This document shows, in pieces, positions 3,230 to 31,596 of a stretch of DNA of 32,000 nt (position 1 is its first letter; each line of letters starts with the position of its first letter). The notes under the pieces were generated by a model that was given only the letters and a program-made list of their open reading frames with translations, ran no database searches and was not told the origin of the DNA. Position numbers and translations under genes: made by a program. The stretch spans positions 1,590,001-1,622,000 of the forward strand of contig NZ_CP027570.1 in assembly GCF_003010495.1 (NCBI RefSeq), in the 5' to 3' direction. Source of the stretch: Megasphaera elsdenii DSM 20460. GTDB lineage: Bacteria > Bacillota > Negativicutes > Veillonellales > Megasphaeraceae.

Positions 3230-3306
3230 GGGCGGTTAGCTCAGTTGGTTAGAGTATCTCGTTGACATCGAGGGGGTCGATGGTTCGAATCCATTATCGC
3301 CCACCA
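3230..3306 (+). tRNA. tRNA-Val (anticodon GAC), CCA encoded
   Basis: Cloverleaf folded by hand: 7-bp acceptor stem, D arm gctc/gagt, anticodon loop ttGACat, T loop ttcgaat, and a 3' acca. Confidence 0.9.
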
Positions 3307-3315
3307 TATTGTGTG

Positions 3316-3351
3316 AAAAAAGAGGCTGTCGCATTAAGACAGCCTCTTTTT
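3316..3351 (+). terminator. Intrinsic terminator of tRNA-Val copy 1
   Basis: A-run, stem agaggctgtc/gacagcctct, T-run. Confidence 0.8.
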
Positions 3352-3472
3352 GAGTTTTAAGTTTGTAGTTTTTAGTTTGCAGCAAATGGTAAAAAATTAA
3401 AGCCAGCTTCTACAAAATATAAAGCAACCTCTCAGACCGCCTGAGGCGGCCAGCTCCCCTAAAAAGGGAGCC
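3352..3472. repeat. Mosaic repeat: gttttaa/gtttgta/gttttta/gtttgca heptads, AT hairpin, AC-rich arm, then double-hairpin element (3421-3472)
   Basis: Read directly. The double-hairpin element recurs at 6078, 7749, 31740 and 31806. Confidence 0.7.
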
Positions 3473-3983: not shown

Positions 3984-4060
3984 GGGCGGTTAGCTCAGTT
4001 GGTTAGAGTATCTCGTTGACATCGAGGGGGTCGATGGTTCGAATCCATTACCGCCCACCA
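3984..4060 (+). tRNA. tRNA-Val (anticodon GAC), second copy
   Basis: Identical to 3230-3306 except for one acceptor-stem base (c4051 versus t3297), which changes G-U to G-C. Confidence 0.9.
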
Positions 4061-4109: not shown

Positions 4110-6007
4110 GTGCGCCCGGCATGGGCGCACTCTAATGGGTGAAAGTCCCTAAGCCGCCCGGTAGCGGGAAGGCTATAGCCAGAACCAAGGGTGTCCATCG
4201 TGAGATGGAATCTGAAGGAAGGTCGAGGCAAATCTCTGGTCTGACGAACAGAAATCACATAAGGCTAGTCATGGGGATAAGGCCGCCTAACAGGTTGAAG
4301 TCCCATAGCTACACGGAACCATGAATAGTAGATGTGGCAGACACATGGAGAGAAAGAGTGCGTTCTTACCCGGGGAGGCCTCATGGACATGATGGTGCCA
4401 TATAGATTGGACATCATGGTTGAAATAAGATTTATCATGAGGAGTCAGCCGAGGCCATAGTACCTTATGGGCTATAGACCATGAGGAAAGGGCCGAATCC
4501 TAGGAGATGTTAGTTAATGAAAGTAACCAATCATGGAATGAAAGACAGAAAACTTCATCAAGAAGGCTGTCCACAAAAAGAGGTTGCGGAACAACCGGGA
4601 TATGTGGAAGCGTCTGCCCATGCGAGGATTGCTGAACACAACGACATCATTGCAAGCTTGCCAGCGGACAGTCTGTTGAAGCAGATTTTATCACGAGACA
4701 ACTTAAATGGTGCCTATAAGAAGGTAAAGTCTAATCGAGGAACCGGCGGGGTCGACAGGATGAGTGTAGATGAACTTCTACCCTACCTGCGGGAACATCG
4801 CCTGGACCTCCTTCAGCAAATACGGAATGGGAAATATAAGCCCCAGCCAGTCCGTCGGGTTGAAATACCCAAAGAGGAAAAAGGGAAATTCCGGAAATTA
4901 GGAATCCCTACGGTCGTAGACCGCATGATACAACAGGCGATTACGCAGGTTCTTGTGCCTATCTACGAGCCACAGTTTTCAGATAGCAGTTTCGGGTTCC
5001 GTCCCAAACGGGGCGCCCACGATGCGTTGAAACAATGCCAGGCCTATGCAGATGAGGGCTATGTCTACGTCGTAGACATGGACTTGGAGAAATTTTTCGA
5101 CAATGTCTGCCAAAGCAAATTGATAGAAGTTCTGTCAAGGAGCGTAAAAGACGGCCGGGTCATCTCGCTGATACACCAATATCTCCATGCTGGTGTTATC
5201 CGGCATGGGATGTTCGAACGAAGTGAACAGGGGGTTCCCCAAGGAGGGCCATTGAGTCCGCTCTTGAGTAACATCATGCTGAATGAGCTGGATAAGGAGC
5301 TGGAACGGCGCGGACATAAATTTGTCCGCTATGCAGATGACTGCATGATACTCTGCAAAAGCAGAAGAAGTGCCGAAAGGACCTTGGAAAGCATCACTCG
5401 ATATATTGAGAAGAAATTATTTCTCAAGGTGAATCGAAATAAGACGCACGTAGCCCACATCCGCTATGTTAAATATCTGGGATATGGCTTCTACCGAAAG
5501 AATGGAAAATGCCGACTCCGGGTGCATCCGAAATCCATTACTAAGATGAAAGACCGTTTGCGGTTTATATTGAAACGAAGCAATGGAAAAGGAAACGAAG
5601 TGAGAGCCCTTCTATTGAAACGATTCATAAAGGGATGGGTGAATTACTTTAAACTAGCGAATATGAAGGAACTGCTAATTCAAATTGACAGATGGATTCG
5701 ACGCAAAATACGAACCATATACTGGAAACAATGGAAGAAGGTACGGACGAAACACCGGATGATAAGCCAATACGGCGCGCCCAAGTGGGTAGTGTTGGAA
5801 ATGGCTAACTGCCGAAAAGGTCCGTGGCGAGCAGCGGCAATGCTGAACTCAGTTCTTACGAATAAAGAAATAGCCCGCCTTGGCTACATAACCATGACGA
5901 GCTATTACAAGCAAGTATGCGAAAACTAGGAAACCGCCGTGTACCGAACGGTACGCACGGTGGTGTGAGAGGTCGGGATTTCTACTCAGAAATCCCTCCT
6001 ACTCGAT
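4110..6007 (+). mobile_element. Group II intron, probably bacterial class C (IIC), with an intron-encoded RT/maturase
   Basis: 5' GTGCG at 4110. Domain V-like helix at about 5934-5965 with a 2-nt 3' bulge and CGC at the triad position. Domain VI helix with a bulged A at about 6001. Size is about 1.9 kb, the IEP has no En domain, and the insertion is right after an intrinsic terminator. The 3' boundary is good to about +/-5 nt. Confidence 0.85.
4517..5929 (+). CDS. ltrA: Group II intron reverse transcriptase/maturase (no endonuclease domain)
   Basis: 470 aa. RT blocks are present, including GVPQGGPLSPLLSN and the catalytic YADD (RYADDCMILC). The maturase X region is rich in W/K/R. There is no C-terminal HNH. 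Confidence 0.93.
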   Translation: MKVTNHGMKDRKLHQEGCPQKEVAEQPGYVEASAHARIAEHNDIIASLPADSLLKQILSRDNLNGAYKKVKSNRGTGGVDRMSVDELLPYLREHRLDLLQQIRNGKYKPQPVRRVEIPKEEKGKFRKLGIPTVVDRMIQQAITQVLVPIYEPQFSDSSFGFRPKRGAHDALKQCQAYADEGYVYVVDMDLEKFFDNVCQSKLIEVLSRSVKDGRVISLIHQYLHAGVIRHGMFERSEQGVPQGGPLSPLLSNIMLNELDKELERRGHKFVRYADDCMILCKSRRSAERTLESITRYIEKKLFLKVNRNKTHVAHIRYVKYLGYGFYRKNGKCRLRVHPKSITKMKDRLRFILKRSNGKGNEVRALLLKRFIKGWVNYFKLANMKELLIQIDRWIRRKIRTIYWKQWKKVRTKHRMISQYGAPKWVVLEMANCRKGPWRAAAMLNSVLTNKEIARLGYITMTSYYKQVCEN

Positions 6008-6175
6008 CAGTCAGCGGCTAGCAGTTAGCGAATGGTTTTAAATTTGACGCCATCCACTAAAAACTACAAATGCTGAGAAAGCAACCTCTCAGACCGCCTT
6101 TGGCGGCCAGCTCTCCTATGAGGAGAGCCTTTCGTCAAACATCAAGTCTCAAGCCTCAAGCATCAAAGACAAAGA
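6008..6175. repeat. Mosaic repeat: cagtcag/cggctag/cagttag heptads, AT hairpin, AC-rich arm, double-hairpin element (6078-6129), tcaag-type heptads (6139-6175)
   Basis: Same module order as 3352-3472, that is, the 3' flank of the other tRNA-Val copy. Confidence 0.7.
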
Positions 6176-6323: not shown

Positions 6324-7568
6324 ATGCATAGTTTATGGAATGCATTGAACCGCATCAGCCTGATTAAGCAGATCCTCGTCGGCTTGATCATCGGTATCGT
6401 CGTGGCCATGGCTTTCCCGGCAGCTGGGAAGGAATTGGCTTTGCTCGGCGTCATTTTCGTCGGTGCCTTGAAGGGCATCGCCCCGGTCTTGGTCTTCGTC
6501 CTGGTCTCCGCTGCCTTGAGCCGCAAACAGGAAGATCACGAATCGAACATCAAAGATGTCATCATCCTGTATCTTATCGGTACCTTTTTAGCGGCTTTCT
6601 TCGCCGTCATGATCAGTTTCGTCTTCCCGCTGACGCTGCAGCTCGACGTATCGGCTGCCAGCAATAAGGCGCCTGAAGGCATTGCCGAAGTCTTGACGAC
6701 GCTCCTCAAGAACATCGTCGATAACCCGGTCCACGCTCTGATGACGGGCAACTACATCGGGATCCTCGGCTGGGCCTGCCTGTTCGGCGTCGCCGTCCGC
6801 CGCGTTTCCGAATCGTCGAAAGCCGTCCTCGATGACTGTGCCGACGCCGTTACGACTTGTGTCCAGTGGATCATCCGCCTGGCTCCGCTCGGCATCATGG
6901 GCCTCGTCGCTGACTCCGTTTCGTCCAATGGTATCGGTGCCCTCATCGGCTATGCTAAATTGCTCTGCCTCTTGTTAGGGACGATGCTGCTCTTTGCCTT
7001 CGTCGTCAACCCGATCATCGTCTATGCCAAGATCCACCGCAATCCCTATCCGCTGGTCTGGAAATGCATCAAGACGTCTGGGGTCACGGCCTTCTTTACG
7101 CGCAGCTCGGCTGCTAACATCCCGGTCAACCTGTCCTTGGCCAAAGAAATCGGTGTCAATCCCGATACGTATACCGTTACGATTCCCCTCGGGGCCACGA
7201 TTAACATGTCCGGCGCAGCTATCACCATTTCTATCATGACCTTGGCCGCTGTCCATACCTTAGGGATTGCCGTCGACTTCCCGACAGCCCTCCTGCTCAG
7301 CGTTCTCTCGGCCATCGGTGCCTGCGGGGCTTCCGGCGTTGCCGGCGGCTCTCTGCTGCTGATCCCCATGGCCTGCAGCCTCTTCGGCATCTCCAATGAT
7401 ATTGCCATGCAGGTTGTCGGCGTCGGCTTCATCATCGGCGTTTTACAGGACTCGACGGAAACGGCCCTCAACTCGTCGACAGATATCCTCTTCACAGCCG
7501 CTGCCGACTTCGCCCAGCGCGGTTATCCCGAACACCTGGGCGGCCACGAAGTAAGCCATCAAGGGTAG
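6324..7568 (+). CDS. sstT: Serine/threonine:sodium symporter SstT (DAACS family)
   Basis: 414 aa. The N-terminus ([17 protein letters not shown]...[21 protein letters not shown]) closely parallels E. coli SstT. RBS aggagg is present. Confidence 0.88.
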
Positions 7569-7663
7569 GAACGCCCATGTAGGGGAGGCCCATGTAGGGG
7601 ACGCCCAGAGGGCGTCCCGCCGTCCGCCGTTCGCATGTAGGGGCGCCACGTGGGGCGCCCGCC
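7565..7663 (+). repeat. Cluster of REP-like units: two half units (7565, 7579) and two full GTAGGGG-hairpin-CCCGCC units (7594-7621, 7637-7663)
   Basis: Each unit is GTAG followed by a GC palindrome (gggacgcc/ggcgtccc and gggcgcc/ggcgccc). The first GTAG contains the sstT stop codon. Confidence 0.75.
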
Positions 7664-7705
7664 ATAGATTATAATGAATAACGCAATTCGCCGTTCGCAA
7701 AAGTA

Positions 7706-7743
7706 CCCTCGCATGACGATATTCATCATGCGAGGGCCTTTTT
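7706..7743 (+). terminator. Intrinsic terminator downstream of sstT
   Basis: Stem ccctcgcatga/tcatgcgaggg followed by a T5 run. Confidence 0.7.
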
Positions 7744-7748
7744 GTGTC

Positions 7749-7832
7749 AAAAGCAACCTCTCAGACCGCCTTCGGCGGCCAGCTCCCCTATAAGGGGAGC
7801 CGCTAGCCACGAGCCACGAACCACGAGCCACT
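7749..7832 (+). repeat. Double-hairpin element (7749-7801) followed by a cacgagc/cacgaac heptad array (7802-7832)
   Basis: aaaagcaacctctc + ccgcc-ttc-ggcgg + gctcccc-tataa-ggggagc, followed by the 7-nt units. Confidence 0.75.
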
Positions 7833-7866
7833 AAAAAAGCGTTGTCCGTCAGGACAACGCTTTTTT
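7833..7866. terminator. Bidirectional intrinsic terminator (A6, gcgttgtcc/ggacaacgc, T6)
   Basis: Symmetric A-run and T-run around a 9-bp stem. It lies 7 nt from the stop of the minus-strand gene at 7873. Confidence 0.8.
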
Positions 7867-19845: not shown

Positions 19846-19930
19846 AAACCGCAAGGACGCGGAGTGTAAGAAATCATTCATCGTTACGATAGAAATGATT
19901 TTCTCCCGTCCTTGCGGTTTTATATTTTTT
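19846..19930 (+). terminator. Long extended hairpin plus T-run, either the terminator of the floA/hydrolase operon or a leader attenuator of the permease gene
   Basis: An 18-bp outer stem aaaccgcaaggacg(c)ggag/ctcccgtccttgcggttt, an inner 8-bp stem aaatcatt/aatgattt, and an apical stem atcg/cgat, followed by ttttatatttttt. Confidence 0.7.
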
Positions 19931-19977
19931 ATGGTTATCATTCATGTATCAGGGGATGTATAACAGGGGGGATAGGT

Positions 19978-21465
19978 ATGTCAAAGAATATTTTCCGAAC
20001 AAAAAGCATCAATCAGTTCCTATCGGAAACGAAACAAGACGGCGGCATGAACCGCGTCCTGGGGACGTTCGGTCTGACTATGTTGGGCATCGGCTGTATC
20101 GTCGGCACGGGGATTTTCGTCCTGACCGGGATTGCAGCGGCTAATTTTTCCGGGCCGGCCCTGGTCATTTCCTTCGTCATCGCAGCCCTGGCCTGTGGCT
20201 GTGCCGCGCTTTGTTATTCTGAATTTGCAGCCATGATTCCCGTAGCCGGCAGTGCTTACACCTACGGTTACGTGGCTTTAGGCGAATTTTGGGCCTGGGT
20301 CATCGGCTGGGATTTGATTTTGGAATATACCCTGGCGCTGAGCGCCGTTTCCATCGGCTGGTCCGGCTATTTCGGTAATATCCTGACGAATTTGGGCCTG
20401 GCCTTGCCGAAAGAGTTCATTACGGCACCGGAAGAAGGGGGCCTCATCAATTTGCCGGCCATGGCCATTATCTGGATCATCACTTTGATCAATATGAAGG
20501 GCATTACTCAGAGCTCCCTGGTCAATGACATCATCGTCGTCATCAAGCTGGCTGTCGTCGGCCTGTTCATCGCCCTCGGCGTCAGCCATGTCGACCCGGC
20601 TAACTGGACGCCTTTTATGCCCTATGGCTGGTCCGGTGTCTTTACCGGCGCTTCGGTCATCTTCTTTGCTTACATCGGCTTCGACGCCGTTTCGACGGCA
20701 GCTGAAGAAGTCAAGAATCCGCAGAAAGATTTGCCTCGCGGCATCATCTTATCGCTGGTCATCTGCACGGTCTTGTACATTGCCGTATCGGCTATCCTGA
20801 CCGGCATGGTCCCGTACTTGCAGTTCAAGACGACGGCCGCTCCCGTTGCCTATGCTCTGCAGCTCGTCGGTTATCATTGGGGTGCCGCTGCCGTATCGGT
20901 CGGCGCTATCTGCGGCCTCACGTCGGTTCTCCTGGTCATGTGCCTCGGCCAGAGCCGTATCCTCTTCGTCATGTCCCGTGACGGCCTGCTGCCGCGCTTC
21001 TTCGGCCATATCAACCAGAAGACCAAGACGCCGGTCCGCAGTTCCTTGTTAGTCGCCGTCGTATCGTCCATCCTGGCCGGCCTCGTTCCTATCGGCGTCG
21101 TCGCCGAAATGGTCAATATCGGCACGTTAGGGGCTTTCATCATCGTCTCGGCGTCGGTCATCATCCTTCGCAAGAAGGCACCGGACCGCGTCCGTCCGTT
21201 CCGCTGCCCCTTGGTTCCGCTCATTCCGATTTTGGCGATCCTCTTCTGCGGCGTCCTGGTCGTCATGCTGCCGACGATTACGCAGATCCGCTTCGTCGTA
21301 TGGCTGGCCATCGGCCTGGTCATCTACTTTGGCTATGGCTATAAGCACAGCATCATCACCAAAGCCCAGAAAGGTACCCTGACGGCTCCCGTTTCCGCGG
21401 CGGCTGAAGAACCGGCTCAGGCTCCGGCCCTTCACGAAGGAGCTCATTCCACTATTGAACACTGA
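19978..21465 (+). CDS. APC-family amino acid permease (cationic amino acid transporter/YfnA-like)
   Basis: Start is placed at ATG 19978 (MSKNIFRTKSINQF...). Motifs are GIGCIVGTGIFVLTG and SEFAAMIPVAGSAYTY, with about 13-14 TM segments. Confidence 0.88.
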   Translation: MSKNIFRTKSINQFLSETKQDGGMNRVLGTFGLTMLGIGCIVGTGIFVLTGIAAANFSGPALVISFVIAALACGCAALCYSEFAAMIPVAGSAYTYGYVALGEFWAWVIGWDLILEYTLALSAVSIGWSGYFGNILTNLGLALPKEFITAPEEGGLINLPAMAIIWIITLINMKGITQSSLVNDIIVVIKLAVVGLFIALGVSHVDPANWTPFMPYGWSGVFTGASVIFFAYIGFDAVSTAAEEVKNPQKDLPRGIILSLVICTVLYIAVSAILTGMVPYLQFKTTAAPVAYALQLVGYHWGAAAVSVGAICGLTSVLLVMCLGQSRILFVMSRDGLLPRFFGHINQKTKTPVRSSLLVAVVSSILAGLVPIGVVAEMVNIGTLGAFIIVSASVIILRKKAPDRVRPFRCPLVPLIPILAILFCGVLVVMLPTITQIRFVVWLAIGLVIYFGYGYKHSIITKAQKGTLTAPVSAAAEEPAQAPALHEGAHSTIEH

Positions 21466-21597
21466 CGCATTCTATATATCGACAGAAAAAGACCCGCCCT
21501 CTCCCCTGGCCGGGCCTTTTTCTTGCCCTTGAAGCTAGCCGCCGGCCGTGATTTTTTTTGTAGCCTGCGTTCTTTTTCATCGTCTGTATGCGATTTC

Positions 21598-21625
21598 GTA
21601 GGGGCCGTCTCAACGGGCGGCCCGC
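21598..21625 (+). repeat. REP-like unit GTAGGGGCCGTC-tcaacg-GGCGGCCCGC
   Basis: Same arms as the units at 25259, 29274 and 29468, with a different loop. Confidence 0.7.
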
Positions 21626-21700: not shown

Positions 21701-21749
21701 GCTAACCACGAACCACGAACCACGAGCCACGAACCACTAGCCACTAGCC
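21701..21749 (-). repeat. Heptad array (ccacgaa/ccacgag/ccactag units as read on the plus strand)
   Basis: Seven consecutive 7-nt units read directly. Confidence 0.75.
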
Positions 21750-21807
21750 CCCCATTTGTGGTAAAGTAGAGCCATGCGAAATATCATTGCAGAGGGGAGC
21801 TAGGAGA

Positions 21808-22782
21808 ATGGAAAAAAAGAAGATCTATGTATTGGCCTGCGGCGGGACCATTGCCGGCAAGGCTGCGTCTGCCGACGATTTGACGGGGTATGCTGCCGGG
21901 CAGACATCGGTCGGCGAATTGCTGGCCGCCGTACCGGAACTGGCTGAGTATGCCGATGTAGAAGGCGAGCAGTTCTGCAATATCGACAGTTCGGACATGA
22001 CCGAAGCCTTATGGCAGTCCCTGGCCAGCCGGGTACAGGAAGTGGCTGACCGGGAAGACGTGGACGGCATCGTCATCACCCACGGCACGGATACTATGGA
22101 GGAAACGGCCTATTTCCTCGACCTCACGGTCCACACCATCAAGCCTGTCGTCCTGACGGGCTCCATGCGGCCTTCGACGGCCATCAGTGCCGACGGGCCT
22201 TTGAACCTGTTGGAAGCCGTCCAGGCGGCGTCCTGGGCGGAATTGGGGAAATACGGCGTCGTCATCGTCATGAACAGCACCGTTCACAGCGCCCGCTTCG
22301 TCGAAAAGACCGATACGACCCATGCCGATACTTTCAAAGGCCGCCAGATGGGCTGCCTGGGCTACATGCAGGACGGCCGGACGTACTTGTACCAGCAGCC
22401 CCTGCGCAAGCATACGTGGTCGTCGGACTTGGCGTCTCCCAAAGACTTGCCGCCCGTGGCCATCGCCTATACCTATGTAGGCCTTACGGCCGATGACGTG
22501 TGCCGTCTGGCCCAGGGGAAGGCCGGTCTGGTCCTGGCCGGCCTCGGTCACGGTAAAGTGCCGGAACCGGTCTGGCAGGCCTTGCAGTCCCTCATGGCAC
22601 AAGGGCTCGTCGTCGTCCGCGCTGCCCGCGCCCTGGGAGGGATGGTCACGCCGGTCCCGGCTTATGACGGGACGATTACGGCTGATTCCCTGACGCCGCA
22701 GAAGGCCAAGATCCTCTTGCAGCTGGCCCTGGCCCATACGACGGACCGGGACAAGATACAGGCCATCTTCGACACGTACTGA
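21808..22782 (+). CDS. L-asparaginase, type II (AnsB-like) family, no signal peptide
   Basis: Start is placed at ATG 21808 with RBS aggag. Motifs are LACGGTIAG (catalytic Thr), HGTDTMEETAYFLDL and GSMRPSTAISADGP. Confidence 0.9.
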   Translation: MEKKKIYVLACGGTIAGKAASADDLTGYAAGQTSVGELLAAVPELAEYADVEGEQFCNIDSSDMTEALWQSLASRVQEVADREDVDGIVITHGTDTMEETAYFLDLTVHTIKPVVLTGSMRPSTAISADGPLNLLEAVQAASWAELGKYGVVIVMNSTVHSARFVEKTDTTHADTFKGRQMGCLGYMQDGRTYLYQQPLRKHTWSSDLASPKDLPPVAIAYTYVGLTADDVCRLAQGKAGLVLAGLGHGKVPEPVWQALQSLMAQGLVVVRAARALGGMVTPVPAYDGTITADSLTPQKAKILLQLALAHTTDRDKIQAIFDTY

Positions 22783-25167: not shown

Positions 25168-25202
25168 TTTGGTGGCTCGTGATTCGTGGTTCGTTGTTCG
25201 TA
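25168..25202 (+). repeat. Heptad array gtggctc/gtgattc/gtggttc/gttgttc starting immediately after the stop codon
   Basis: Read directly. The stop TAG (25165-25167) sits inside GTAG. Confidence 0.75.
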
Positions 25203-25240: not shown

Positions 25241-25258
25241 ACTAGCCCCTAGCCCCAG

Positions 25259-25340
25259 GCGGGCCGCCCTTTGGGACGGCCCCTACGAACCACGAACCAC
25301 GAGCCATGAGCCACGAGCCATGAGCCACGAGCCACGAGGC
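25259..25340 (-). repeat. REP-like unit (25259-25286, minus orientation) plus a heptad array (25287-25340) abutting the stop of the HAD gene
   Basis: The reverse complement reads gtggctc/atggctc heptads, then GTAGGGGCCGTC-ccaaag-GGCGGCCCGC. Confidence 0.75.
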
Positions 25341-25341
25341 C

Positions 25342-25992
25342 TCACACTCCGAAGAGAGCCCCCAGTTCTTCCCGCGTGTCGATGAGGTACGTCGGCTGGA
25401 GGGATTTCAGGAAGTCCCGGTCGCGGAAGCCCCAGGTGACGAGGGCGGCGTCGAGGCCGGCGTTGTCGGCGGTCTGTTTATCGACTTCCGAGTCGCCGAC
25501 GTAGATGGCGTCTTCTTTGGCACAGCCCAGGCGTTTCAGGGCTTCCCAGACCATGTCCGGCGCCGGCTTTTTGCGGTACATCGGCGTTTCGCCCAGAGAG
25601 AAGTCGACGAAATCCTTGAAGTATTCGTCGTGCAGTTCGGAGACGGCGCCCTGGCCCTTATTGGAGACGATGGCCATGTGGTAGCCGGCTGCCTTCAGCC
25701 GTCCCAGGACCTGGGGGATGCCGGGGTAGGGGAAGGTCGTCGTCTGGCAACGGGCGCTGTAATAGGCGATAAATTCCTTTGTCATCGTCCGCCGCAGGGC
25801 TTCCGGCGCCTGCGGAGCGGCCTTGTCGATGAAGCCGTCATAGCCAAAGCCCAGGCAGGGCCGGATGGCCTTTTGCGTCATAGAAGGCAGGCCATGGCGG
25901 GCGAAAACGTAGTTCAGGCTTTTCGTCAATTCGTCCAGCGTATCCAGGACAGTACCGTCCATATCGAAGACGATGGCTTTATATTTTTCCAT
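25342..25992 (-). CDS. HAD-superfamily hydrolase (phosphoglycolate phosphatase/PpaX-like)
   Basis: Start is placed at ATG 25992 (MEKYKAIVFDMDGTVLDT, motif I DxDGT) with RBS aaaggag. Motifs II (SNK) and IV (GDSEVD) are present. Confidence 0.88.
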   Translation of the reverse strand: MEKYKAIVFDMDGTVLDTLDELTKSLNYVFARHGLPSMTQKAIRPCLGFGYDGFIDKAAPQAPEALRRTMTKEFIAYYSARCQTTTFPYPGIPQVLGRLKAAGYHMAIVSNKGQGAVSELHDEYFKDFVDFSLGETPMYRKKPAPDMVWEALKRLGCAKEDAIYVGDSEVDKQTADNAGLDAALVTWGFRDRDFLKSLQPTYLIDTREELGALFGV

Positions 25993-26137
25993 GAAAAAGA
26001 CTCCTTTGATGGACAAAAAAACAATTTACTCCATTATTATACGAAAGCGTCAATTAATCGGCAATAGGTAGTAGCTCATGACGTCATCTTATGCTACAAT
26101 GGGGAAAGAAGTTTGATAAAATAGAGGAGAGGATGAC

Positions 26138-28390
26138 ATGACAAACTTTTTGCCGTACGCTATCATAGCGGGCATAGCAATCGTCTTTTTTGTAATTTGT
26201 TATATTATGTATTCCGGCGGAGGACACTCCGAGAGTAGTCCCCAAACGGAGAAAAAGGGGAACACGAAGACGAAGACGCGCTACGACAGCGAGCCGCAGC
26301 CGATGCGCAGGGTCCAGCACCGCAGCCCGGCAACAGTTAAGCATGCCAGACAATTACCGAAGGAAGCGGACGACGAAGAAACAGCCCCCTTGCCGAAAGT
26401 CCCGAAAATGACCTTAGGCGAACGGCGGGAACATCCGGAAGAAACGGCTTTTGTCACGACCAAAGGAGAAGCTGTCCGCCGCAATGGCAAGATCGTCTAT
26501 AAAGAAGCGCCGAAAGCCCAGGAAACACCGGTCCGTAAGGGTCCCAATGCAGATGACCTCGATGCGACCCGCGTCTTGTCACGCGATGAAATTCTGGAAG
26601 CCATGGAAAAGGTAGATAAAGAAGAAGCCGCCGCCTATAAGGCACGGGAAGAAGAAGCCAAGCTGGCCCGCCAGCGCCAGGCTGAACAGGAAAAAGAAGC
26701 CCAGGAACAGCAGCTGGCCCGCAACCGGGAACGGCGCGAACAAGCCCGCCGCGAAGCAGCTGCCGCTAAAGAAGCCGATGCCCGCCGGGAAGAACGGGCG
26801 CGCTGGGCGAAAGAAGTAGCCCAGACAGAAGAAGACAAGCCGCCTCTGGCTGATATGGCTGCCATCGTCTCGGCTGACCTGGCCGCCAAAGATGGCGGTG
26901 CAGCCCCGGTGGTAAAGAAAAAGGCTGCCCCTGCTGCTGAACCGGCAGCATCCGAACAAGAAGTGCCGAAAGATACGCACCGCAAACACATTCTCCGCGA
27001 CGTCATGGCCGAAACGGCGAAAGCCGCTGGCCGGGCTGCTGCCGGGACAACCGTGGCTGCAGCCGCCTCGGAAGGGGCTAAGAAACGGGCCGTATCCGAT
27101 GCGACACGGGTCATGGAAGGCCCTGTCGTCAGCGAAGGCATGAAGGCCGTCGCTTCGCAGCTGGAACAGACCCAGCGCATGGAACCGATCCACATCGATT
27201 CGGCCATGACGGCCAAGAAGAAGGCTGTCCCTGAAGAAACGATGGTCATGCCGCCTATCCGGGCCCACAAGTCCCAGGAAAAAGCGACGCCTGTCGTTAA
27301 ACCGGCACCGGTCGTCAAACCGTCCCAGACGTCGTGGGATTCCAATACGTCCGGCACGGATACGCGCAATCCGTCCCTGGGCAGTGCGCCGCACTATGCG
27401 TCCATTTGGGAATCGGAAAGCACCGTCGATTCTCCCGTCGTCCGCCAGTGCGTCTCTCACTTCCTGCGCCAGTACGGCGTCGTTTCGCCGGACCTGCAGC
27501 AGCAGACGGAATACATCACGTCGGCTGCCTTCGACCAGATCGGCTGCCAGACCGATGCCGAACGGCAGCAGGCCCTGGCTCCGCTCATCGTCCAGGAAGC
27601 CTTGCAGAATGTCCAGAAAGCCTACGCCGCTCATCCCGACGACTATGTCGGTACCATTGCCCTTCAGGCTTTTTATGATATCGTTCATTGCTCGCCCATT
27701 TCGACGCGCCACCTGGTCGCCATCGATGCCTTGAAGGTCATGCCCTATTTGACCCAGGGCCATTACCAGATCCTGGCGATTCTCTTATTGTTCCTGTATT
27801 CGCGCAACTCCCACAATGTCGATAAAGATTCGTTCTGCCGCTATATCGATAAATACGTCTATCCCTTCCTGGATGGCTTCCCGACAGAACGGCCTTATTA
27901 CCAGCAGCTCGATTACCTGCACTGCACGGCTTTTGAAGCCAAGGAAACACATTTTGCCGAAATCCTGTCCGATTCGTATCCGCTCTTGTTCCGCTTCCGC
28001 GGCTTTACTGAAGAAGAATTGCGCAAGGCCCTCAAGGGCCAGCGGATCCCGGACGAATTTATCGTCCCGTCCTTCAATTCGCCCCTGGTCAAACTGGCCA
28101 TGGTCGACGAAAGCATGGCCAAACGCTTCTTCCGCATGACCGGCATCAACGACCGCAACATGCAGGACCATATCCTGCGCCTGGCCAAGAAGCGCCCGGC
28201 CAATTTCAGCGGCGAAGAAGCCCTGGACATCATGGAAGACATTTCGCCCGTCCTGGCCGACCTGGCCGATATCTGGGACAGCTCGCTGCTGCGCGTATCG
28301 ACGCTGTCGCTCCTGGGCCTGTACTTAGCCCAGGGCTTCGTCAAGGAAATCATTGGCGAAGAATTTGATTTGTCCCGCTGGTTTGAATAA
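26138..28390 (+). CDS. Large membrane-anchored protein: N-terminal TM, E/K/R/A-rich coiled-coil-like region, Ala/Pro-rich linker, conserved-looking globular C-terminal domain of about 330 aa, function unknown
   Basis: 750 aa with RBS aggagag. The TM is AIIAGIAIVFFVICYIMY. A charged repeat region spans about aa 150-260. The ORF ends 11 nt before the galU start. Confidence 0.75.
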   Translation: MTNFLPYAIIAGIAIVFFVICYIMYSGGGHSESSPQTEKKGNTKTKTRYDSEPQPMRRVQHRSPATVKHARQLPKEADDEETAPLPKVPKMTLGERREHPEETAFVTTKGEAVRRNGKIVYKEAPKAQETPVRKGPNADDLDATRVLSRDEILEAMEKVDKEEAAAYKAREEEAKLARQRQAEQEKEAQEQQLARNRERREQARREAAAAKEADARREERARWAKEVAQTEEDKPPLADMAAIVSADLAAKDGGAAPVVKKKAAPAAEPAASEQEVPKDTHRKHILRDVMAETAKAAGRAAAGTTVAAAASEGAKKRAVSDATRVMEGPVVSEGMKAVASQLEQTQRMEPIHIDSAMTAKKKAVPEETMVMPPIRAHKSQEKATPVVKPAPVVKPSQTSWDSNTSGTDTRNPSLGSAPHYASIWESESTVDSPVVRQCVSHFLRQYGVVSPDLQQQTEYITSAAFDQIGCQTDAERQQALAPLIVQEALQNVQKAYAAHPDDYVGTIALQAFYDIVHCSPISTRHLVAIDALKVMPYLTQGHYQILAILLLFLYSRNSHNVDKDSFCRYIDKYVYPFLDGFPTERPYYQQLDYLHCTAFEAKETHFAEILSDSYPLLFRFRGFTEEELRKALKGQRIPDEFIVPSFNSPLVKLAMVDESMAKRFFRMTGINDRNMQDHILRLAKKRPANFSGEEALDIMEDISPVLADLADIWDSSLLRVSTLSLLGLYLAQGFVKEIIGEEFDLSRWFE

Positions 28391-28401
28391 GGAGCATCGT
28401 T

Positions 28402-29277
28402 GTGAAGAAAATCCGTAAAGCCGTCATCCCGGCGGCCGGGTTCGGCACCCGTTTCCTGCCGGCGACGAAGGCGACGCCGAAAGAAATGCTGCCTATCGTC
28501 GATAAGCCGACAATCCAGTATATCGTCGAAGAAGCCCTGCAGAGCGGCATCGAAGAAATCCTCATCATCAGCGGCCATGCCAAACGGGCCATTGAAGACC
28601 ACTTCGATACCAATCCGGGCCTGGAACTGCACCTGGAAGAAAGCCATAAGATGGGGCTTTTGAACATGGTCCGCAGTATTTCCGAAATCAATATCCACTA
28701 TATCCGTCAGAAACACATGCGGGGCTTAGGCGATGCTATCCTTTGCGCCCAGTCCTTCATTGCTGACGAACCCTTCGCTATCCTTCTCGGCGACGACGTC
28801 GTCTACAACGAAACCAATCCGGCCCTGCGCCAGATGATCGATTTGTACAACGACCTCGACGCGACCATCCTGGGCTGCCAGGAAGTCCCCTTGGAAAAAG
28901 TATCGTCTTACGGCATCGTCCAGGGGACGCCTGTCGAAGGGCAGGGCATCCTCAAGGTCAACCGCGTCGTCGAAAAGCCGGCCATCGAAGAAGCGCCGAG
29001 CCGGACCGCCGTCCTCGGCCGTTATATCGTCACGCCGGACATCTTTGAAGTCCTGTCCCATACCCGGCCGGGCAAAGGCGGGGAAATCCAGCTCACCGAT
29101 GCCTTGCAGACCATGGCCAGCCGGGAAGCGGTCTATGCCTACTGCTTTGAAGGCAAGCGCTACGACGTCGGCGATAAACTGGGCTTTTTGAAAGCCAACG
29201 TAGAATACGCCCTGCGCCGGCCCGACCTGGCCGCCCCGTTCCGCCAGTTCCTGAAGGAAGTCGTTCGTGGTTCGTAG
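28402..29277 (+). CDS. galU: UTP--glucose-1-phosphate uridylyltransferase
   Basis: GTG start with RBS aaggag. Motifs are AVIPAAGFGTRFLPATKATPKEMLP and VEKP. The last codons (VVRGS-stop) are made of heptad and REP sequence. Confidence 0.92.
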   Translation: MKKIRKAVIPAAGFGTRFLPATKATPKEMLPIVDKPTIQYIVEEALQSGIEEILIISGHAKRAIEDHFDTNPGLELHLEESHKMGLLNMVRSISEINIHYIRQKHMRGLGDAILCAQSFIADEPFAILLGDDVVYNETNPALRQMIDLYNDLDATILGCQEVPLEKVSSYGIVQGTPVEGQGILKVNRVVEKPAIEEAPSRTAVLGRYIVTPDIFEVLSHTRPGKGGEIQLTDALQTMASREAVYAYCFEGKRYDVGDKLGFLKANVEYALRRPDLAAPFRQFLKEVVRGS

Positions 29278-29585
29278 GGGCCGTCCTGGAAGGCGGCCCG
29301 CGTGAATCCTGTGTAAAACGTTATAGCTTGTAGTGGGTGGCTCGTGGTTTGTGGCTTGTGTTCGTGGCTCGTGCTCGTGGCTCGTGTTCGTGGCTCGTGG
29401 TTCGTGGCTCGTGTTCGTGGCTCGTGGCTCGTGGTTCGTGGTTCGTGGCTCGTGTGGCTCGCGGCTCGTAGGGGCCGTCCTGGAAGGCGGCCCGCGTGAA
29501 TCCTGTGTAAAACGTTATAGCTTGTAGTGGGTGGCTAAAAATTTAAAGCCATCCGCTAGCCACTAGCCACTAACTGCTAACCACT
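29261..29585 (+). repeat. Composite: heptads, 69-bp unit (REP-like hairpin plus spacer, 29274-29342), 125-bp array of 6/7-nt cgtggct/cgtggtt/cgtgtt/cgtgct units (29343-29467), identical 69-bp unit (29468-29536), AT hairpin, ctagcca/ctaactg heptads
   Basis: The two 69-bp copies are identical base for base by my alignment. Array units were parsed by hand. Confidence 0.85.
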
Positions 29586-29637
29586 AAAAAAGGGGCTGTC
29601 GCACGAAGGTTTTTGCCATCATGCGAGGGCCCTTTTT
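29586..29637 (+). terminator. Chimeric terminator-like element (left half ggggctgtcgca, right half atcatgcgagggccc, T-run)
   Basis: The left arm matches the 15642 terminator and the right arm matches the 7706 terminator. Pairing between the two halves is only partial. Confidence 0.45.
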
Positions 29638-29644
29638 CTTAAAT

Positions 29645-29737
29645 GTTTGAGGTTTGATGTATGACGTTTGAGGCGATGGCTTTTAAATTTTGTCCCCTCC
29701 ACATCAAACTTTCAACTTCAAACTTCAAACTCAAAAA
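29645..29737. repeat. Mosaic repeat: gtttgag/gtttgat/gtatgac heptads, AT hairpin centre (gatggcttttaaatttt), catcaaa/cttcaaa heptads
   Basis: Inverted GT-rich and AC-rich arms read directly. Confidence 0.75.
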
Positions 29738-30403: not shown

Positions 30404-31318
30404 TTAGATTCCCAGACGCATATTATGTTTCTGGAAATCAGCATACAGCTTTTCATAGTCATCCGGTGACATGTAGTTGCAATGGCTATGAATGCGTACG
30501 GTGTTGTAAAAGGTATTGATGTATTCAAACACCAACAAGTACGCTTGCTGATAATTTTGAATCTTGAAGCGATTGAGCCATTCCCGTTTAATCAGGGAGT
30601 GGAAGGATTCGATGCAGGCATTGTCCCATGGATAGCCTTTCTTCGAATAGCTGCGGCGCATTTGGGATGTCTCCCGAATATATGCCTGCGAAACATACTG
30701 GCAGCCACGGTCCGAATGGATAACCAACAGCTGTCCGGGTTTCCGGCATTGTTTGGCTTCCTGCAGCATCTTGACGATGCCGGCGACGTCCAGATTACGG
30801 GCCAGATTCCAGGCGATGATTTTCCTGGAGAACAAATCCATAATGCTTTCCAAATAGACGAAACCTTCAGCTGTCCAGATATAGGTGATGTCGCTGCACC
30901 ATACTTGATCCGGTTCTTCAGGATTGAAGCATTCCTGAAGGATATTCACCAGCGCCACGTCAAAGTCACTGTTACGGGTCGTTACGGTGTAATGCTTTAC
31001 CCAGCAGGCCTGAATGCCCATTTGCCGCATGTATACGCCAACTGTGCGTTCAGAGATACTGTCCCCGTTCTGCTGCATAACTTGGGCAATCTTCGGGGCT
31101 CCGTAAATCTGCTTGGAATCGTCGTAGATAGTTTGAATCTTTTTCTTCATCTCCTTGCGGTGCTGGGCCTGTTTCGATGGTTTGCGCGCCGCCCAGTCAT
31201 AATATCCTGAAGAAGAAACGTCGAGTTCAGAAAGCACTCCGGACACCGAAAAACGACGTTCTGCCTGATGGGCATTTTCGGCTTCTTCCTGGACACTGCG
31301 ATAGATGGCAATGGTCAT
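30404..31318 (-). CDS. IS3-family transposase OrfB (DDE integrase core), probably expressed as an OrfAB fusion
   Basis: The DDE triad contexts are VWCSDITYI, VIHSDRGCQYVS and YPWDNACIESFH. The frame is open from the A7G site. Confidence 0.9.
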   Translation of the reverse strand: MTIAIYRSVQEEAENAHQAERRFSVSGVLSELDVSSSGYYDWAARKPSKQAQHRKEMKKKIQTIYDDSKQIYGAPKIAQVMQQNGDSISERTVGVYMRQMGIQACWVKHYTVTTRNSDFDVALVNILQECFNPEEPDQVWCSDITYIWTAEGFVYLESIMDLFSRKIIAWNLARNLDVAGIVKMLQEAKQCRKPGQLLVIHSDRGCQYVSQAYIRETSQMRRSYSKKGYPWDNACIESFHSLIKREWLNRFKIQNYQQAYLLVFEYINTFYNTVRIHSHCNYMSPDDYEKLYADFQKHNMRLGI

Positions 31319-31596
31319 TTGTCCAGAATGCTGATAGCTTTTTTTAGGACATTCAACGCATCCTTCGCATCCCGCAGTTCACGCTGCAGACGGGCGATTT
31401 CCTTAGCTTCATCCGAAGCATAGTTGCCGGAACCACGATAAGGCATTTCGCCATTGTCCTTCAGCTGCTTTTGCCAACGGGACAAGGTTTGTGGAGCAAT
31501 ACCTAGATTCGTAGCACAGCCAACCAAGCCGAGTTCCCGATGTTCATGATAATATTTAACTGCGTTGATTTTGAATTCTTTGTTGAATTTTGCCAT
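31315..31596 (-). CDS. IS3-family transposase OrfA (HTH)
   Basis: 93 aa with an HTH (GCATNLGIAPQTLSRWQKQ) and a leucine-zipper-like C-terminus. Confidence 0.9.
   Translation of the reverse strand: MAKFNKEFKINAVKYYHEHRELGLVGCATNLGIAPQTLSRWQKQLKDNGEMPYRGSGNYASDEAKEIARLQRELRDAKDALNVLKKAISILDK
31338..31346 (-). other. Programmed -1 ribosomal frameshift site (A AAA AAA G on the minus strand)
   Basis: The minus strand reads cta aaa aaa gct in the orfA frame. The -1 frame continues without a stop into orfB. Confidence 0.75.

Follow-up and report, generated by a model that had tools for sequence, protein, structure and literature searches.

Repetitive extragenic palindromes (REPs) are defined by features that include an unpaired GT(A/G)G tetranucleotide 5' of the palindrome (PMC3733652, PMC2817692), and a gene for a REP-associated Y1/HUH transposase (RAYT) that is bracketed by inverted REPs constitutes the defining REP-RAYT arrangement (PMC2817692). 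The transposase TnpA-REP binds the REP as a single strand, uses GTAG as recognition and guide sequence and cleaves at CT or CA through a phosphotyrosine intermediate (PMC8266576). REPs of the GTAG type have been listed in Proteobacteria, Cyanobacteria, Chloroflexi and the PVC group, with Firmicutes unmentioned (PMC3733652); the original RAYT paper placed RAYTs in Proteobacteria only, and Group 1 RAYTs have been noted in Clostridia with few associated repeats (PMC5581495). We found no description of Firmicutes or Negativicutes REPs in the REP surveys consulted and no literature joining RAYT, REPIN and Firmicutes, and searches for REPs or RAYT in Megasphaera returned only false matches, e.g. rep-PCR typing. 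Here, we analyzed a 32,000-nucleotide stretch of the Megasphaera elsdenii DSM 20460 chromosome (the whole stretch is called the window in the following), which corresponds to positions ~1324116-1356115 of HE576794.1 from the same strain; 3876 bp from that record were identical. The window contains a family of short GTAG-headed hairpins. We consider it very likely that these are GTAG-tagged REPs and belong to a REP-RAYT system that is native to Megasphaera and the RAYT gene of which has been lost at its usual locus in DSM 20460.

The pattern GTAGGGG-N14-30-CCCGC has seven matches in the window, i.e. six distinct full units plus an overlapping match with its start in a half unit, as compared with a chance expectation of 0.09 +/- 0.32 in 100 dinucleotide-preserving shuffles. 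An unfiltered search of the window with a covariance model of 29 distinct Megasphaera units returned the same six units with 32-43 bits (E 4e-6 to 8e-9) and no further match above 18 bits. The six full copies announced in the original prediction, which had been made from the letters of the window, were thus borne out. A scan of the window at Rfam gathering thresholds matched two tRNAs and the domains of a group II intron but nothing else, and in particular none of the units. Each unit comprises 26-30 nt and consists of the unpaired 5' GTAG, a stem that opens with GGG...CCC and continues with 5-6 variable complementary pairs, a loop of 3-8 nt and an unpaired 3' GC. The stems are 8-9 bp long and the calculated hairpin energies lie between -17 and -20 kcal/mol (RNA parameters).

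The first group of units is found at 7565-7662 on the plus strand. It begins with half unit 1 at 7565-7578 (GTAGGAACGCCCAT), which has a degenerate head and a 5' arm only, followed by half unit 2 at 7579-7593 (GTAGGGGAGGCCCAT). The half units and the beginning of the first full unit make up a 15-bp tandem array (window 7565-7607; Tandem Repeats Finder, 7571-7607, 2.5 copies), the repeat unit of which is GTAG plus the 5' arm plus CAT; the half units described earlier at 7565 and 7579 are real. The first full unit, of subtype B (GTAG GGGACGCCC aga GGGCGTCCC GC), occupies 7594-7620 and has a perfect 9-bp stem. A CGTCCGC/CGTTCGC heptamer tail at 7621-7636, which echoes the 3' arm and varies in copy number between strains, separates it from a unit of subtype B2 at 7637-7662 (GTAG GGGCGCC acgtgg GGCGCCC GC). 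The ends of these two units had been placed one base too far, at 7621 and 7663. The remaining units belong to subtype A. One lies on the plus strand at 21598-21625 (GTAG GGGCCGTC tcaac GGGCGGCCC GC), contains a T·G wobble and is preceded by ATGCGATTTC, an element that recurs before units at other Megasphaera loci. The unit on the minus strand, at 25259-25286, stands after a GTGGYTC heptamer array and before a bidirectional terminator. At 29274-29336 (plus strand), a unit (29274-29301) is joined to a conserved 35-nt 3' extension (GTGAATCCTGTG...), and at 29468-29530 its tandem duplicate (29468-29495) carries the same extension, with a plus-strand GTGGCTC/GTGTTC heptamer array at 29337-29467 in between. 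The latter two units are not independent of each other, as each heads an identical 63-bp segment composed of the unit and GTGAATCCTGTGTAAAACGTTATAGCTTGTAGTGG.

Comparison of the 29 distinct Megasphaera units gave insight into the constraints that act on the hairpin. Standard pairs were present in 92% of the stem cells as opposed to 81% after shuffling, and controls with slid partners were paired in 40-54%. Both sides have changed at five of the nine pairs, with 26 such cells observed and 7.0 when shuffled, and none of 500 shuffles reached the observed covariation score. At the first variable pair, 8-25, CG (15 units), AU (11) and UA (three) are all represented. At the position left free by the pattern used in a scan of further genomes (see below), Watson-Crick pairing occurred in 35 of 36 Megasphaera units and in 94 of 104 units from outside the genus. 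The GTAG head is invariant and unpaired in all 29 units. One pair is a T·G wobble in 15 of the 29 units and never its opposite-strand equivalent, C·A, which shows that folding takes place on the GTAG strand. We conclude that the repeats form a genuine family whose structure is under selection; the earlier proposal that stems and loops differ between copies while complementarity is preserved by selection on a hairpin agrees with both folding and covariation.

No RAYT-like gene is present in the window, as correctly stated before. A homology search with the RAYT of Megasphaera sp. UMGS1114 (L031; L numbers designate the loci that were fetched) led to an M. elsdenii protein cluster, the commonest member of which, P0121, has 149 aa. 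The exact P0121 sequence is encoded on ~450 contigs, one of which is a 2.55-Mb chromosome, and bears the IMG name 'REP element-mobilizing transposase RayT'. The HUH motif of P0121 is H76-V-H78 and the nucleophile is Y135; these residues align with HMH and Y115 of 4er8, the Escherichia coli TnpA-REP, chain A of which was the top sequence match among PDB structures (E 1.3e-4). An AF2 model of P0121 (pLDDT 88.8) had its best fold match in the same structure, 4er8_A, with a TM of 0.67 and an rmsd of 3.2 A. Pfam Y1_Tnp (PF01797) scored above cut-off for the 48%-identical homolog of Megasphaera sp. UMGS1114, and a precomputed Pfam table assigns the same family to the M. elsdenii gene itself. Across 52 homologs, no variation was seen at T24, H76, H78 and N139, and conservation of Y135 and P140 is at least 90%. 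A conserved N-terminal Thr and an NP(L/V)(R/K)xG motif beside the catalytic Tyr are features of RAYTs (Nunvar 2010; PMC2817692), and in P0121 the former is T24 (YFVTICT). On its sequence and modeled fold, P0121 is predicted to be a Y1/HUH nuclease of the RAYT/TnpA-REP type.

The gene for this protein is located between an amino-acid permease gene and queC, in the same context in all contigs examined. In all 11 RAYT-bearing M. elsdenii contigs first examined, a minus-oriented unit stands at -153 to -127 and a plus-oriented unit at +501 to +530 of the gene, i.e. the inverted unit lies 127-153 bp upstream and the forward unit starts 51 bp downstream. A search for a Y1 transposase gene between inverted copies had been recommended as a check, and at the level of the species, in M. 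elsdenii strains, its outcome is positive. The cluster around the gene comprises 4-10 units, the number depending on the strain. Its module of ~205 bp consists of a REP(+), a 150-bp spacer and a REP(-) and is also present at a second locus. Inverted doublets are a feature of the RAYT locus and of the Megasphaera loci L031, L038, L077, L097, L100, L128 and L158. The ~205-bp module also carries an extended -10-like box (TGGTATAAT or GAGTATAAT) that faces the downstream REP(-), seen at 4444-4480 and 4699-4735 of L131 and at ~2055-2090 of L170. The box of the last module faces the RAYT gene and is a possible module-borne promoter.

In DSM 20460, the permease-queC site is empty. The spacer of this strain (L170, HE576794.1:724126-729809) has a length of 567 bp and contains REP modules only, namely a single REP(+), the spacer module and, at 93-bp intervals, three REP(-) units. 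There is no Y1 ORF in it, the accessions of the permease and QueC, CCC72848 and CCC72849, follow each other directly, and HE576794.1 was not among the contigs listed in exact look-ups of P0121. The assembly GCA_900142305.1 differs from DSM 20460 in its queC allele and represents another strain. The site is likewise empty in several other genomes or contigs, whereas the gene is present in others of the same queC allele. Apart from DSM 20460, the complete genome CP198969.1 is RAYT-minus, and JBGKMN010000001.1 is RAYT-plus. RAYT is hence a presence/absence polymorphism within M. elsdenii. Loss of the gene at the DSM 20460 locus probably occurred by recombination between the flanking ~205-bp REP modules, which are direct repeats. 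With the permease-queC site empty, the six copies of the window may therefore be orphan REPs. Such orphans would now change only by slippage and unequal recombination, that is in the tandem copy number of the 15-mer, the heptamers and the 63-bp segment. Since the gene is absent from its locus in the type strain but retained in other isolates, the polymorphism offers a direct test of whether REP populations need a RAYT to persist and spread.

The arrangement in Megasphaera can be compared with several described systems. As in the REPtrons formed by GTAG REPs and TnpA-REP in E. coli (YafM/4ER8), Stenotrophomonas and Marinomonas, the Megasphaera units possess an unpaired 5' GTAG and a GC-rich palindrome, are extragenic and show compensatory changes in the stem, and a small Y1/HUH gene, the product of which has kept the HUH motif, the catalytic Tyr and the N-terminal Thr, is bracketed by inverted units. 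The REP/RAYT reading put forward in the original prediction is thus supported by the GTAG head, the compensated GC palindrome, the extragenic position and the presence of a Y1/HUH gene in the species. In contrast to those REPtrons, the host is a Negativicute (Firmicutes/Bacillota) and the RAYT gene is polymorphic in presence within M. elsdenii. The identity between P0121 and the TnpA-REP of E. coli is ~21-23%, P0121 falls into a subgroup with N-terminal RKxxRLxxYDY and C-terminal NNPxxW, and the Megasphaera stems contain a T·G wobble where E. coli REPs have a bulge. Like the REPIN-RAYT system of Pseudomonas fluorescens SBW25 (Bertels & Rainey 2011; PMC3116915), that of M. elsdenii uses an inverted doublet with a conserved spacer as a repeated module, and the RAYT gene, single-copy and syntenic in SBW25, occupies one site in the M. 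elsdenii contigs examined. Unlike in SBW25 REPINs, the M. elsdenii spacer is much longer (~150 bp), is not itself a long hairpin and contains heptamers and the TGGTATAAT box, and the copies in the window are mostly singlets. REP clusters of alternating orientation flank the M. elsdenii RAYT gene with a strain-dependent number of units, as in the bacterial interspersed mosaic elements (BIMEs) of E. coli. Unlike in BIMEs, there is no evidence of IHF or gyrase motifs in the M. elsdenii clusters, and these include same-orientation runs at 93-bp spacing and tandem arrays of half units.

The Y1/HUH chemistry, the subterminal single-strand hairpin and the 5' guide tetranucleotide are also shared with the IS200/IS605 elements (IS608, ISDra2) and their PATE derivatives, which raises the alternative that the units are ends or PATE-like miniature derivatives of classical IS200/IS605 elements and not those of a domesticated RAYT. 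P0121 has its fold in common with the IS608 and ISDra2 TnpA proteins, and one M. elsdenii genome (L174, CP199043.1) encodes a classical IS200-type TnpA of 151 aa on the minus strand (1650-2105). This gene has end hairpins of its own and sits in a 93-bp REP repeat of a RAYT-less permease-queC spacer. However, its hairpins (GCCCCCACCCGTAAAACGGGTGG... and CACCCGCATAGCGGGTG...) lack the GTAGGGG head. P0121 reached 73.8 bits with the NCBIfam model REP_Tyr_transpos (NF047646, equivalog) as against 27.7 bits with the IS200 model, far below the cut-off of 55 of the latter, and the fold matches to the IS608 and ISDra2 transposases (2xm3, 2vih and others) had an rmsd of 7-9 A. Moreover, the 149-aa gene resides at a single syntenic site instead of in multiple copies, and the M. 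elsdenii system has neither defined ends nor a tnpB partner. We regard an IS200/IS605 origin as highly unlikely, and a REP-RAYT system remains our preferred interpretation.

Strain comparisons showed that the regions around the units are unstable, which by itself does not indicate transposition. Downstream of the symporter gene that precedes the first group, ten contigs with an identical symporter protein were compared. The 15-bp half units are present in one to four copies, the unit at 7594 is missing in three of the ten contigs and the number of CGTCCGC heptamers differs. Downstream of the nucleotidyl transferase gene that precedes the last two units, ten contigs with an identical protein contain either one unit or two units with 35-122 bp of heptamers between them. 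The second copy (29468-29530) is missing in five of the ten, and the separating heptamer array measures 0-122 bp in other strains. The units and their tandem derivatives are hotspots of length variation between strains. The symporter contigs also differ in a module of ~125 bp that follows the first group of units at 7690-7835 and contains a terminator hairpin, a CAGACCGCCTTCGGCGGC hairpin, a CAGCTCCCCTATAAGGGGAGC hairpin and GAGCCAC heptamers; it is single in the window and present as a tandem duplicate in seven of the ten symporter contigs (L002-L004, L006, L008-L010).

Heptamer tandem arrays are found in many intergenic regions of the window, among them GTGGCTC/GTGGTTC, GAGCCAC/TAGCCAC, GTTTGAG/TCAAACT, GTTTGTA, CTACTAA and others. 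Further arrays are located at 65-150, 3348-3379, 6135-6167, 7797-7831, 21704-21749, 25172-25201, 25242-25256, 25285-25338, 29556-29587 and 29643-29735. An array and its reverse complement often stand on both sides of a terminator hairpin, with a copy number that depends on the strain, and in several cases an array directly adjoins, in phase, the head (GTGGYTC|GTAGGGG) or the tail (CCCGC|CGTCCGC) of a REP. The units could accordingly be viewed as by-products of a pervasive heptamer microsatellite process, i.e. as phased heptamers and an array artefact. The length of subtype A units is exactly four heptamers (28 nt), three of the four abut GTGGYTC arrays in phase, CGTCCGC heptamers follow subtype B, and array lengths differ between strains. 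Against this, the same unit is found free of heptamers in other genera and phyla, units flank the RAYT gene, some units measure 26, 27, 29 or 30 nt, and most heptamer arrays of the window have no unit. Furthermore, the stems covary and slippage does not yield covariation. We rejected this explanation, to which we attach almost no probability, as it is largely refuted by the array-free units, the position of units at the RAYT gene and the covariation of the stems.

All six units of the window lie between ORFs, on the sense strand and downstream of a gene, and two of them touch the gene only via its TAG stop codon. The group at 7594/7637 is downstream of an SDF symporter gene (6324-7568), the TAG stop codon of which (7566-7568) falls within the degenerate head of half unit 1. 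The 21598 unit lies between a permease gene (19912-21465) and an asparaginase gene (21787-22782), downstream of a terminator-like hairpin at ~21488-21525, and the 25259 unit is in the 3' region of an HAD hydrolase gene on the minus strand (25342-26016). The units at 29274 and 29468 are downstream of the nucleotidyl transferase gene galU (NTP_transferase; 28402-29277), which ends with a TAG (29275-29277) inside the GTAG head of the full unit. In this gene, the C-terminal residues ..VVRGS are encoded by GTTCGTG heptamers, and the hairpin begins one base past the stop codon. A T-tract terminator is present downstream of five of the six units. A reading of the units themselves as intrinsic terminators was rejected: their hairpins are not followed by a T-tract, and true T-tract terminators lie further downstream.

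This gene context leads to the possibility that the units are primarily RNA elements, i.e. stabilizers in 3' untranslated regions (3' UTRs) or modulators of translation termination that were selected in the transcript and spread by ordinary duplication. Such an interpretation would fit the sense-strand position downstream of genes in six of six cases, the location upstream of a T-tract terminator in all but the 21598 unit, the overlap with a stop codon in two units and the T·G wobble, which reads as G·U in RNA on the sense strand; many REPs have been described as following coding regions and as plausibly transcribed (PMC3733652). However, it leaves unexplained the invariant unpaired GTAG, the inverted units around the Y1/HUH gene in every RAYT-bearing contig and the doublets in both orientations elsewhere. 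The orientation bias is not significant because the window offers only four independent intergenic regions, and there is no match to an Rfam family. Altogether we consider an RNA element as the primary nature of the units improbable. An RNA function is compatible with the REP interpretation as a secondary role instead of a rival origin: the units may also act as 3' hairpins of mRNAs, in analogy to E. coli REPs, since all six copies have the sense orientation in 3' untranslated or intergenic transcripts and a stop codon is provided by two of them.

The distribution of the archetype beyond M. elsdenii was studied in a collection with one genome per species, using the pattern GTAGGGG-N-CGYC-N3-8-GRCG-N-CCCGC. 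Among the matches listed were several Megasphaera species, many metagenome-assembled genomes (MAGs) of Oscillospiraceae, Ruminococcus and Lawsonibacter, as well as Gemmata and Fimbriiglobus (Planctomycetota), candidate division FCPU426 and others, and an inverted partner was often close by. A RAYT regular expression that demanded all three of its motifs had no match in the fetched loci. A two-motif screen of the same loci yielded L031 (Megasphaera sp. UMGS1114) and L118 (a Gemmata MAG), and a hidden Markov model built from RAYT homologs additionally retrieved L121 (Oscillospiraceae MAG, CANROC010000043.1). In L031, L118 and L121, the Y1/HUH ORFs adjoin units, and an inverted unit pair is located upstream of the L031 RAYT. 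The RAYT ORF of L121 (6176-7111 in reverse-complement coordinates) contains five in-frame 84-bp repeats that preserve the frame of the 311-aa protein; four of these have an intact GTAGGGGCCGCCACTCCTGGCGGCCCGC unit and one has a mutated GTTG head. A further inverted unit follows the HUH motif in this ORF.

A number of findings weigh against the assignment of the window units to a REP-RAYT system. In the window, the copies are singlets or in the same orientation, with no inverted doublets. REPs typically number more than 100 per genome; six units were counted in the 32 kb of the window and eight in 71 kb of sequence not chosen for REPs, and the latter density extrapolates to ~280 per 2.47 Mb, a figure that does not amount to a genome-wide count. 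The 73.8 bits of P0121 with NF047646 are just below the cut-off of 80, and where classical RAYTs have NP(L/V)(R/K)xG, P0121 has N139-P-L-Q-W-E, so that NPL is kept and R/K and G are replaced; the subgroup consensus at this motif is NNPxxW, and the Gemmata RAYT (L118) has NPVRKG. The absence of a RAYT from DSM 20460 is shown for the permease-queC locus and inferred for the genome. The pattern of the collection scan fixes the head and part of the stem and hence shows presence, not abundance, with an ascertainment bias in the cross-phylum picture. No transposition event was observed in the between-strain comparisons. A comparison of orthologous intergenic regions had been proposed; between strains, the presence or absence of units does differ, and the changes are nearly all in tandem copy number, for which slippage suffices without a RAYT. 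A 107-bp insertion that carries the REP variant GTAGGGGCGCCCACGTGGGGCGACCGC was found at ~2620-2745 of L155 (CP027569.1) and is missing from the nine other contigs of the nucleotidyl transferase comparison. It is bounded by 14-bp direct repeats, AACT(G/A)CACGAAAAT, which are not a signature of IS200/IS605 or RAYT.

How the units may have arisen can be outlined by analogy to the TnpA-REP proteins of E. coli, Stenotrophomonas and Marinomonas (PMC8266576, PMC3479197). P0121 would bind the folded GTAG strand as single-stranded DNA, with GTAG as recognition and guide sequence, would cleave at a nearby dinucleotide via a 5'-phosphotyrosine link and would then rejoin the strands; cleavage and rejoining would seed copies in intergenic DNA. 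A more comprehensive proposal, which we put forward tentatively and consider rather doubtful as a whole, would unite the natural experiment of RAYT retention and loss in M. elsdenii with repeats that seed arrays and an archetype shared across phyla. According to this proposal, loss would proceed via the RAYT's own flanking REP modules, with culturable, sequenced strains that either keep or lose the gene. The arrays, seeded by the heads and arms of the repeats, would consist of 15-mers (GTAG plus 5' arm), of heptamers that echo the 3' arm and of GTGGYTC arrays that abut GTAG in phase. Through such arrays, 3' UTRs and in some cases even stop codons and C-termini would be altered from strain to strain. 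If true, the archetype GTAG-GGG-N-CGYC...GRCG-N'-CCC-GC would be common to RAYT-bearing Oscillospiraceae and Planctomycetota, implying either very old conservation of a recognition code or spread of the REPtron across phyla.

A REPtron in a Negativicute, together with the archetype in gut Oscillospiraceae, would widen the range of REP and RAYT into the Firmicutes. The earlier judgement that such a system would be notable in this group holds to a moderate degree: the surveys describe no REPs from Firmicutes, but Group 1 RAYTs of Clostridia and the name RayT in IMG already exist. In M. elsdenii, an organism of industrial and ruminal importance, the variation in length and the overlap with two stop codons are of relevance for annotation, strain typing and the biology of 3' UTRs.

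Some further features of the window are of note. Two tRNA-Val(GAC) genes are located at 3230-3306 and 3984-4060, and ~40 nt upstream of each there is a near-identical AAAAGTAGGTTATAATAAAC(G/A)AGTCGCACAGAGAAGTA that contains a TATAAT box. Just downstream of a tRNA-Val gene lies a group II intron (4194-5929) with Rfam domains at 4194-4493 and an RT/maturase ORF at 4517-5929. The intron is present in HE576794.1 and CP027569.1, and eight other contigs have a different upstream gene order (IleRS, others), which indicates a rearrangement or insertion in this region. A 750-aa ORF at 26138-28390 had no Pfam-A match in our scan, and a precomputed table assigns it to PF28206 (Vpar_1526). DSM 20460 carries, on the minus strand at 30404-31596, a gene for an IS3-family transposase (rve, HTH_21) that is overlapped upstream by another ORF; the nine other contigs shown have a gene for a 341-aa protein at this position instead.

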